NCBI GenBank assembly: GCA_964636085.1
Contig: CAZWPQ010000012.1
Coordinates: 1-14,990 of the forward strand
Source: an uncultured Nitrososphaerota archaeon
GTDB taxonomy: Archaea; Asgardarchaeota; Njordarchaeia; Njordarchaeales; Panguiarchaeaceae
Direction of reading: 5' to 3'
Length of the DNA: 14,990 nt
Below, piece by piece: positions 8,439-12,037 of this stretch. Position numbers and translations under genes: made by a program. Below the pieces are notes generated by a model, which saw only the letters and a list, made by a program, of their open reading frames with translations, did no database searches and was not told where the DNA came from. Each line of letters begins with the position of its first letter. The first letter of the stretch is position 1.

Positions 8439-8494
8439 GGCAGATTTCCATACTAGTTTTGAGCAAGGTTAATAGTGAAGGAATGGGGATGTTA

Positions 8495-9166
8495 ATGGTT
8501 TCCGATGTTGAGGAGAAAAAACAAAAAACGCAGGAAGAGGAGGGGAGAGAAGATATAGGCGAGCTGAATCCAGACATAAAATTGTTCGGCAGATGGAGCT
8601 GGGATGGTGTAAAAGTTCGTGATCCGGGGCTATTCCATTATATCTCCCTGAAACCCATATATGTTCCTCATAGCTTTGGAAGGCATGAAAAAACAAGATT
8701 TGCAAAGGCCAATATAAATATTGTGGAGAGGCTTATTAATAGATTGATGGTACCAGGAAGGGAAAGAGGGCTACCCAAGACTGGAAGGTTCTCTGGAAAG
8801 AAGCTTCACGCTATGAGAATTGTTGAAAAAGCATTTGAGATAATCGAAAAACGAACGGGTGAGAACCCGATACAGGTTTTTGTTCGGGCTGTAGAAAATT
8901 GCGCACCAAGAGAAGACATAACGAGTTTTAGAATAGCGGGCATAATCAAAAAGTTTGCCCTAGATATTTCTCCCCAAAGGAGAGTCGATATGGCCCTCAA
9001 GTTCTTAGTGATGGGGTCGAGAAAGAGATCCTGGAGATCTCCACTAAGTATTGCTGAGTCGCTTGCGCAGGAAATAATAGAAGCGGCTAAAAGTCCAGAT
9101 AATGTCAACTCCATAGCTATTAGCAAGAAGATGGAACTAGAGCGTATTGCTGAGGCAGCAAGATAG
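8495..9166 (+). CDS. rps7: 30S ribosomal protein S7 (uS7), archaeal type
   Basis: Motifs IKLFGRWS, V.DPGL..YI, PHSFGRH, IVERLIN, GKK..A..IV..AF.II, NPIQV.V.AVEN.APRE, DISPQRR, ERIA.AAR. Start is uncertain (ATG 8483/8489/8495); GGGGA at 8485-8489 favours 8495. Confidence 0.96.
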   Translation: MVSDVEEKKQKTQEEEGREDIGELNPDIKLFGRWSWDGVKVRDPGLFHYISLKPIYVPHSFGRHEKTRFAKANINIVERLINRLMVPGRERGLPKTGRFSGKKLHAMRIVEKAFEIIEKRTGENPIQVFVRAVENCAPREDITSFRIAGIIKKFALDISPQRRVDMALKFLVMGSRKRSWRSPLSIAESLAQEIIEAAKSPDNVNSIAISKKMELERIAEAAR

Positions 9167-10984: not shown

Positions 10985-11425
10985 ATGGTTACAAAATCAC
11001 CAAGAGGAGAATTCGCAGCCAGAGTGCTTAGAAAAAAGAGGAAAAAAGCCAGATGGGCAGACCTAGACTACAAGAGAAGGGTACTTAAATTTAAGGAGCG
11101 TTTCGATCCGTTAGAAGGGGCACCACAAGCATTGGGTATAGTGCTTAAAAAGGTTGGTGTTGAAGCCAGAAAGCCTACTGGAGCACTAAGAAAATGTGTC
11201 AAGGTCAAGCTAAAGAAAAATGGAAAAATTGTGACGGCTTTCGTGCCGTGGGATGGAGGCCTATTATACATTAATGAACATGACGAGGTACTCATTCAGC
11301 CAATTGGTGGTGTTAGGGGTAGATCATTTGGAGATATTCCAGGCGTTAAATATCGTGTGATAAAGGTTAATAGAATTTCACTAAAAGAGTTGGTCACTGG
11401 TAGGAAGAAGAAAGAGGCTAGGTAG
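10985..11425 (+). CDS. rps12: 30S ribosomal protein S12 (uS12 / eukaryotic S23 type) with variant decoding loop
   Basis: Motifs [55 protein letters not shown]...GDIPGV.Y.V.KVN..SL. Confidence 0.96.
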
Positions 11426-11455
11426 CATATATTCGATGTCCCGGTGAATATATGC

Positions 11456-12037
11456 ATGAGTAAGCCTAGAGAAGTTAGGCTTAAGGTCGTCCTATTGGGT
11501 GATGGTGGGGTCGGCAAAACTTCTATTGCGCGGAGATACCTCGGCGAGCATTTCAGGACCGATTATAGGGCAACGATTGGCGCAGATTTTTATGTAAGAA
11601 AAGATACTTACAATTTCCAAGGACTAGGTACTTTTGTCTTCCAATATCAGATTTTCGATCTCGCTGGCCAGCCTACCTTTAAGCAAGTTCGTCCAATTTA
11701 TTATCAGAGAGCTAAGGCTGCCATTATGGTGTTTGATGTCTCTAGGCCCGAGACTTTTCAGTCGGTTCCAAGTTGGCTCAGGGAGTTCTGGACTCATGCG
11801 GGCGGGGTATATCCGTTTATTCTAGTCGGAAATAAGGTTGATCTGAGAAAAACACATCCGTGTCTTACTCCTGAGCATGGGAAAAAGTATGCAGAGATAC
11901 TATCGCAGCGCCTAGGTTTTCCTGTTCCCTATGTTGAGACTTCGGCCAAAACTGGGTATAATATAAATGAGGCCTTTAAAACACTTGCCCATACATTAGC
12001 CGTTTGGATTGTGAGGGTTGCCTCCAGACGACGCTAG
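11456..12037 (+). CDS. Rab-like small GTPase (Ras superfamily)
   Basis: G1 GDGGVGKT, G2 YRATIGADF, G3 DLAGQ, G4 NKVD, G5 ETSAK. SD GGTGA at 11443-11447 precedes ATG 11456. Confidence 0.95.
   Translation: MSKPREVRLKVVLLGDGGVGKTSIARRYLGEHFRTDYRATIGADFYVRKDTYNFQGLGTFVFQYQIFDLAGQPTFKQVRPIYYQRAKAAIMVFDVSRPETFQSVPSWLREFWTHAGGVYPFILVGNKVDLRKTHPCLTPEHGKKYAEILSQRLGFPVPYVETSAKTGYNINEAFKTLAHTLAVWIVRVASRRR

Follow-up and report, generated by a model that had tools for sequence, protein, structure and literature searches.

In structures of the 30S subunit during decoding, the contact that a short loop of ribosomal protein uS12 makes with A1492 and the codon can be attributed in part to the hydroxyl group of its serine. 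The ribosome literature regards this loop, PNSA, as universal and as reading the codon-anticodon helix directly (PMC4224418; PMC12700985). In Escherichia coli, the asparagine side chain of the loop is held in a stable hydrogen-bond network with an aspartate of the second loop and an arginine that follows the first (N45-D88-R49), and R53 lies nearest to 16S helices 44 and 27 in simulations, its replacement by alanine (R53A) altering paromomycin-induced miscoding (PMC4224418). Laboratory mutations of bacterial S12 that affect fidelity or streptomycin response (rpsL K42, R53, and the PNSA and PGVR loops) fall on the same protein surface (PMC4224418). Among the archaea, the uS12 proteins of solved ribosomes, those of Thermococcus kodakarensis (6SKF) and Pyrococcus furiosus (4V6U and related structures), read EAKQPNSAMRK across the loop. 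Intein-interrupted uS12 genes are targeted at the same hyper-conserved site. Many archaeal uS12 matches of 468-660 amino acids contain an intein (e.g., P0123, P0125 and P0163), and in P0202 it sits inside the loop itself (...KQPN/C...HN/SAMRK...).

A uS12 gene with a different loop lies in the window, the stretch of 14,990 nucleotides analysed here, which belongs to an assembly (G000) of 2.41 Mb in 102 contigs that is 83% complete. The encoded protein resembles the Thermococcus and Pyrococcus proteins in length class and fold family, aligns with them from end to end (E ~1e-57), and shares with them the GDIPG(V/I) loop, Pro64, R69-K70, and a basic N-terminal extension. It differs from them in its loop, R-K-P-T-G-A, and in R73K, R50L, and E55K. 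Against the Pfam profile PF00164 (Ribosom_S12_S23) it scores 131.2 bits (cut-off 22.3) over profile positions 2-109 of 110. The codons of the loop stretch, GAA GCC AGA AAG CCT ACT GGA GCA CTA AGA AAA, are in frame with the ORF and translate as E60-A-R-K-P64-T65-G66-A67-L-R-K70, so that the bases, frame, and translation bear out the PTGA loop reported in the preliminary description (Table 1). R-K-P-T-G-A takes the place of the motif K-[KQ]-P-N-S-A, and the second motif, G-D-[IL]-P-G-V with its conserved aspartate, is present as GDIPGV. A basic residue, R62, stands at the position of E. coli K42, and R69-K70 after the loop fall in invariant columns of the archaeal alignment. The arginine two residues before the proline, to which special weight had been given as a change from lysine, is the majority state, found in 81 of 113 comparison sequences. 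The remainder of the protein had been called intact, which holds for GDIPGV but not for R50L, E55K, R73K, V131I, and P144E, all at columns that are near-invariant among 113 other archaeal uS12 sequences; by alignment, R73K is the counterpart of R53 in E. coli numbering. The residues altered in the window's protein, those of the loop included, lie at or beside positions at which bacterial substitutions alter accuracy (PMC4224418). Unlike the rpsL mutants, which are single and laboratory-selected, the changes are natural, multi-residue, and lineage-wide, and they replace the asparagine and serine themselves. In contrast to the intein-interrupted genes, the window's gene has no intein, and its loop has been changed by substitution.

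Table 1. Coordinates of the uS12 gene, its decoding loops, and related loci in other contigs and genomes.
Feature	Position	Strand	Details
uS7 gene (PF00177)	8459-9166
rps12 (uS12)	10985-11425	+	ORF of 146 aa plus stop; PF00164, 1.7e-38; only uS12 gene found in the genome
Decoding-centre loop, aa 60-70	11162-11194	+	P64-T65-G66-A67 codons at 11174-11185, replacing PNSA
K73 codon, AAG	11201-11203	+	Arg column in 113 of 113 comparison sequences; E. coli R53 equivalent by alignment
Second decoding loop, G116-D-I-P-G-V121	11330-11347	+	canonical; without intron in the window's gene
Window site equivalent to intron of sister-family rps12	11335/11336		intron-bearing genes: L006 (G012), L010 (G009), L009 (G008), L019 (G010)
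Contig of run X1 over the loop			run is a possible source of the window; identical
Contig of run X2 over the loop	record 5, 10987-11500		identical
Contig of run X3 over the loop	record 14, 11134-11286		identical
16S gene of G001	L039, G001:C11
16S genes with C518G	L148, L159, L168, L171		Micrarchaeota-type MAGs
16S genes with C1404U/G1497A	L154, L156, L158, L182		PHSGIIK group
rps12 pieces of G004	C171:2432-2524, C60:121-201, C88:3132-3212		three contig ends
tRNA-Sec(TCA) call in G000	C6:63541-63630		90 nt
'tRNA-Pyl(CTA)' call in G000	C1:131286-131371		intron-containing

Between positions 8459 and 12037, the window encodes uS7, an ABC-type ATPase of the oligopeptide-transporter type, an unknown ORF of 176 amino acids, uS12, and a Ras-family small GTPase. 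The gene for uS7 is therefore upstream of rps12 with two genes in between, and the usual rps12-rps7 adjacency of str-type clusters is broken and reversed in order. A gene outside its usual arrangement, in a genome that is 83% complete, would be in keeping with a specialised or unexpressed second copy of uS12, or with an artefact of assembly or sequencing, but both are highly improbable given the intact ORF, the single PF00164 match that a profile search returned from G000 (the window's own rps12), the identical contigs of three runs, and the sameness of the loop across the genus. The match tables of relatives showed no second full-length copy, and the window's uS12 is 54-93% identical over residues 1-146 to single full-length matches in the same-phylum genomes searched. 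These searches speak against the specialised second uS12 that had been proposed, and no canonical rps12 was found elsewhere in the G000 assembly at its 83% completeness.

The loop DNA is identical, with zero differences, in contigs of three runs (X1, X2, and X3) from different studies. The public runs containing the stretch are hydrothermal-vent and sediment metagenomes, with no RNA runs among those listed. Two congeners, whose uS12 proteins are 91-93% identical to the window's, both carry PTGA. Varied codons spell the loop in G001, G002, G009, and G012 (ACT/ACA, GGA/GGC, and GCA/GCT), and the congeners also differ synonymously from the window in the codons that flank it. PTGA likewise occurs in each of the 13 further proteins read from the 90%-identity cluster, drawn from several repositories and as many as 16 contigs, and in both other members of a second cluster of truncated proteins (cluster 2, P0023). 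Identical residues amid synonymous turnover are the pattern expected of purifying selection, not of error or of a pseudogene. The preliminary description had reasoned that the change needs several substitutions and is therefore unlikely to stem from a single sequencing error; as few as two single-base changes (AAY to ACY and AGY to GGY) would suffice, and it is the spelling of the same residues by different codons in relatives that argues against an error. With sister genomes and the contigs of three runs in agreement, the PTGA uS12 is confirmed as real and lineage-fixed.

The closest named proteins in the database carry the label Candidatus Njordarchaeia, and the organism is regarded as Njordarchaeia-type, from a hydrothermal-vent metagenome, its name being taken only from the labels of these nearest named relatives. 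Njordarchaeales and Panguiarchaeales have been placed within the Asgard archaea as the class Njordarchaeia, the members of which are described as thermophiles and include some genome-reduced, likely symbiotic lineages such as Panguiarchaeum (bioRxiv 10.1101/2025.02.13.637844). The congener G001 is a hot-spring MAG that was deposited as 'Crenarchaeota archaeon JZ-1.bin_83'. Of the order's 14 genomes, 12 gave a readable uS12 gene, and in all 12 the asparagine after the loop proline is absent. PTGA is present in three genomes of the window's genus and two of another family, PCSG in four genomes, and PSSA, PCSA, and PHSA in one each. Column 65 is asparagine in 112 of the 113 full-length archaeal sequences aligned from outside the order; inside the order it is the most variable column (entropy 1.65). 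Only small or polar residues (T, C, S, and H) stand in for the asparagine there, and neither the proline nor the length of the loop has changed; the flanking R/K-K and R-K and the partner loop GDIPGV are likewise conserved. A Njordarchaeia-labelled environmental cluster retains PNSA, with R-N for R-K before the proline. In the uS12 tree, the window's genus forms a long branch with 100/100 support, and the order's core collapses into a polytomy, so that this tree is compatible with either one or two origins of PTGA. PTGA is an inherited trait that is fixed in the window's genus.

Beyond the order, the claim that K-[KQ]-P-N-S-A is nearly invariant in all domains is not supported by a wider comparison. 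Among the best 120 database matches in a large protein collection, 18 read PNAA, which is frequent among Thermoprotei-type matches, and two read PNAG, while representatives of 50%-identity clusters include PNSG (12 of the 142 loops read) and PHSG (two). With the window's protein as the query, 65 loci were fetched from species-representative genomes, mostly DPANN MAGs, and the 63 readable archaeal loci divide into 27 with PNSA and 36 with other loops (PHSG 14, PSSG 10, PASG 8, PCSG 2, PNSG 1, and PTGA 1), proportions that follow from sampling by similarity to the query and are not population estimates. Most of the non-PNSA loci belong to Aenigmatarchaeota and Micrarchaeota MAGs, in which xRK after the loop has become xIK and GDIPGV has become GS(M/Q)WG or GSIPG; PHSG-LRK, with GDIPGV intact, is read in three MAGs that bear the label Thermoproteota or Crenarchaeota. 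The invariance of PNSA is thus overstated, as the loop is replaced in several archaeal groups, and with so many of the loci lacking it the motif is not truly defining for uS12. PTGA itself was met, among the sequences examined, only in the window's order, and a literature search for natural PNSA variation in archaea found no paper. Non-PNSA loops as such are common in several archaeal groups, so that the possibility named in the preliminary description, that PTGA-like loops are common in archaea, is only half borne out.

The loops PHSG, PSSG, and PASG of Aenigmatarchaeota and Micrarchaeota, the PHSG of 'Thermoproteota/Crenarchaeota' MAGs, and the PNAA of Thermoprotei-type sequences resemble the window's loop in that the substitutes are small or polar and the proline and loop length are unchanged. 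The DPANN loops differ from it in keeping the serine, replacing the alanine by glycine, and having a rewritten second loop (GS[MQ]WG or GSIPG) along with xIK, whereas the window's protein keeps RK and GDIPGV and has lost the serine. Across all sequences examined, the asparagine position is occupied only by T, C, S, H, A, or N and the serine position only by S, A, or G. Judged from sequence comparison, the window's gene is quite probably a single working uS12, with PTGA an inherited and selectively maintained variant of PNSA. What weighs against this reading is that a single GTDB genus contains the loop states PCSG, PSSA, and PTGA together with a related environmental cluster that has PNSA, at least four states in one genus-level group; change of the loop state inside one genus looks more like weak constraint than like a tuned design. 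The main rival, which overlaps with the preferred reading, is accordingly one of relaxed constraint alone: near-neutral drift of the loop in fast-evolving, partly genome-reduced or symbiotic lineages such as Njordarchaeia and DPANN archaea, with PTGA lacking functional meaning and the rRNA changes described below being unrelated drift. The genome-reduced likely symbionts within Njordarchaeia and the variation, inside the order, of thirteen uS12 columns that are otherwise near-invariant (alignment against 113 other sequences) favour it. Such drift is possible but somewhat doubtful, as the residues admitted at both positions are few, PTGA persists through synonymous turnover in three genomes at species level and in 13 environmental sequences, and G000, at 2.4 Mb and 83% completeness, is not strongly reduced.

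Asparagine followed by serine is prone to deamidation at high temperature. Hyperthermophiles might therefore avoid the pair by replacing either its asparagine, as in Njordarchaeia, or its serine, as in the PNAA lineages. Such thermal chemistry would suit the frequency of PNAA among Thermoprotei-type matches, the hydrothermal-vent source of the window, and the Njordarchaeia as bearers of reverse gyrase that are regarded as (hyper)thermophiles. It is nonetheless unlikely as an explanation, since Thermococcus and Pyrococcus retain PNSA in their solved ribosomes, groundwater-labelled Aenigmatarchaeota MAGs also lack the asparagine, and the environmental cluster with PNSA falls within the order itself.

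In the 16S rRNA, the U-U pair 1406/1495 of helix 44 adjoins A1492/A1493. Inspection of helices 18 and 44, as proposed in the preliminary description, gave a divided result: helix 44 is altered in the congener G001, its 530 loop is canonical, and no 16S gene was found in the G000 assembly to which the window belongs. Only two of 14 genomes in the order yielded a 16S sequence, G000 not among them, so that the rRNA changes are known from one congener only. The G001 gene is full-length (1311 bits) and lies on a 410-kb contig, and the uS12 of this genome is 91% identical to the window's. Adjoining the 16S gene here, but on the opposite strand, are a tRNA and the 23S gene's 3' end. The decoding region carries A1396U, C1400U, U1406C, U1495G, and U1498A (E. 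coli numbering). In a comparison of 28 same-phylum 16S genes that were readable on both strands, A1396U, U1406C, U1495G, and U1498A occur in G001 only, and C1400U recurs in a PCSG genome of the same order and, outside that family, in one genome with PNSA. U1406C and U1495G together convert the conserved U-U pair into a Watson-Crick pair, and when 185,579 species genomes were scanned for C1406/G1495, five stretches matched, G001 being the only archaeon. Ribosomes engineered to carry U1406C/U1495G are reported to be viable, with an almost unchanged aminoglycoside MIC (PMC3140962).

An obligatory coupling between 1406/1495 and the loop is rejected, because two small Bacillota MAGs with C1406-G1495 retain a canonical PNSA uS12, TTPKKPNSALRK. 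The other two C1406-G1495 rRNA stretches look eukaryote-like, and a normal bacterial uS12 is present in one of the two bins. Loop and rRNA were further compared in 31 genomes, of DPANN archaea and others, that have both genes. C518G, in the 530 loop, is present in all four PHSGLIK genomes with GSIPG or GCIPG and nowhere else among the 31, and a compensated C1404U/G1497A is present in all four PHSGIIK/GSM(W/H)GV genomes (Table 1). A single genome has G1406-C1495, and one PHSG genome (G113) has a fully canonical decoding site. Nearly all PNSA Woesearchaeota-/Pacearchaeota-type MAGs in this set carry A1499C, several of the PNSA MAGs C1400U, and one both A1396U and C1400U. Each of the lineage-specific loop/rRNA groups is probably a single evolutionary event, and they are leads rather than statistics; as the groups are phylogenetically non-independent, no general rule follows from the 31-genome comparison. 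Scattered changes at 'universal' 16S positions whatever the loop, in reduced DPANN genomes with a similar loss of the loop, are also what relaxed constraint would account for. Diphthamide loss was considered as another correlate of the loop and does not discriminate: a search of 101 same-phylum genomes for Dph2 (PF01866) drew a blank in 85, among them all members of the order and most PNSA families, and most of the genomes thus lack it whatever their loop. In the earlier proposal of a remodelled decoding centre with compensatory 16S changes, a lineage-fixed loop and an altered helix 44 in a congener can be upheld, but a specific compensation between uS12 and 16S rRNA is not supported, in view of the PNSA Bacillota, G113, and the PNSA DPANN genomes.

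How a selectively maintained PTGA loop would work can be outlined from the bacterial analogue. The asparagine may serve mainly to tie the PNSA loop to the aspartate of the second loop, a bond that the hydroxyl group of a threonine could keep; the aspartate and arginine partners of this network are both retained in the window's uS12. The substitutes found at this position (T, S, C, H, and A) are all small, and all except alanine are able to hydrogen-bond. The contact made by the serine hydroxyl would be helpful but not essential, and it appears dispensable because PNAA is natural in many archaea and glycine stands at this position in the window's protein. The essential contacts would then be borne by the loop backbone and the proline. 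N65T, S66G, and R73K may slightly re-tune the decoding surface of a ribosome that remains functional, and the effect of PTGA on accuracy is probably modest. The window's lineage is one in which the decoding centre as a whole evolves fast and departs from the canonical form, and there uS12 and rRNA would diverge in parallel, perhaps with local co-adaptation, which falls short of a proven one-to-one compensation. A stronger version is improbable, in which uS12 loops and 16S positions 518, 1400, 1404/1497, 1406/1495, and 1498/1499 have co-evolved into a rewired decoding centre in Njordarchaeia and, independently, in several DPANN groups, altering the landscape of accuracy or recoding.

Whole archaeal lineages thus live without the asparagine of the loop, and some without its serine, within a restricted pattern of substitution, and these lineages also vary at nearby rRNA nucleotides regarded as 'universal'. 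Such lineages are natural experiments on which contacts of the decoding centre are essential, and they call for caution in annotation and phylogenetic pipelines that assume these uS12 positions to be invariant. PTGA is one case among many, and the wider lesson on the replacement of PNSA is worth more than the single instance. Some interest is added by the phylum, the archaeal one to which the origin of eukaryotes is commonly traced.

In four genomes of the sister family, rps12 is interrupted between the D and I codons of GDIPGV by an insert of 33 nt (34 nt in one), which brings an in-frame TGA in three genomes and breaks the frame in the fourth. The insert folds as a helix, a bulge, a helix of 4-5 bp (GGGG/CCCC), a bulge, and a hairpin of 9-11 bp, whose sequence varies between genomes through compensatory differences that keep the pairing, and without it each of the four genes encodes a perfect uS12 of 146 aa. 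From its predicted fold it is a putative BHB-type intron, since the archaeal tRNA-splicing endonuclease cuts RNA of this bulge-helix-bulge shape; among precedents, the intron in the cbf5 pre-mRNA of Crenarchaeota is the best known (PMC2738675). One intron-bearing and one intron-less relative differ by a single amino acid in uS12, which indicates that gain or loss of the intron was recent. In G004, of the window's genus, rps12 is split over three contig ends and includes two different C-terminal pieces, both starting at about residue 120, just past the intron site of the relatives. Strain heterogeneity or an intron polymorphism may have broken this assembly.

Reassignment of CGG from arginine to tryptophan has been described in two assemblies assigned to Njordarchaeales (bioRxiv 10.64898/2026.04.02.715157). 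The uS12 gene of G007 (L032), a genome of the same order with a PHSA loop and a locus of about 51% G+C, has CGG at a conserved tryptophan (...YR[CGG]RD...) and no TGG, and also has CGG at two positions where relatives have arginine; its codon use appears to fit the reported reassignment. The window's uS12 uses TGG for both tryptophans and has no CGG codon, and ordinary tRNA-Arg(CCG) and tRNA-Trp(CCA) are called in G000. If the decoding centre were indeed rewired, its loosening may, speculatively, have helped the sister family of the order to reassign CGG. ARAGORN also calls a tRNA-Sec(TCA) and a 'tRNA-Pyl(CTA)' in G000, the latter being probably a mis-parsed intron-containing tRNA.
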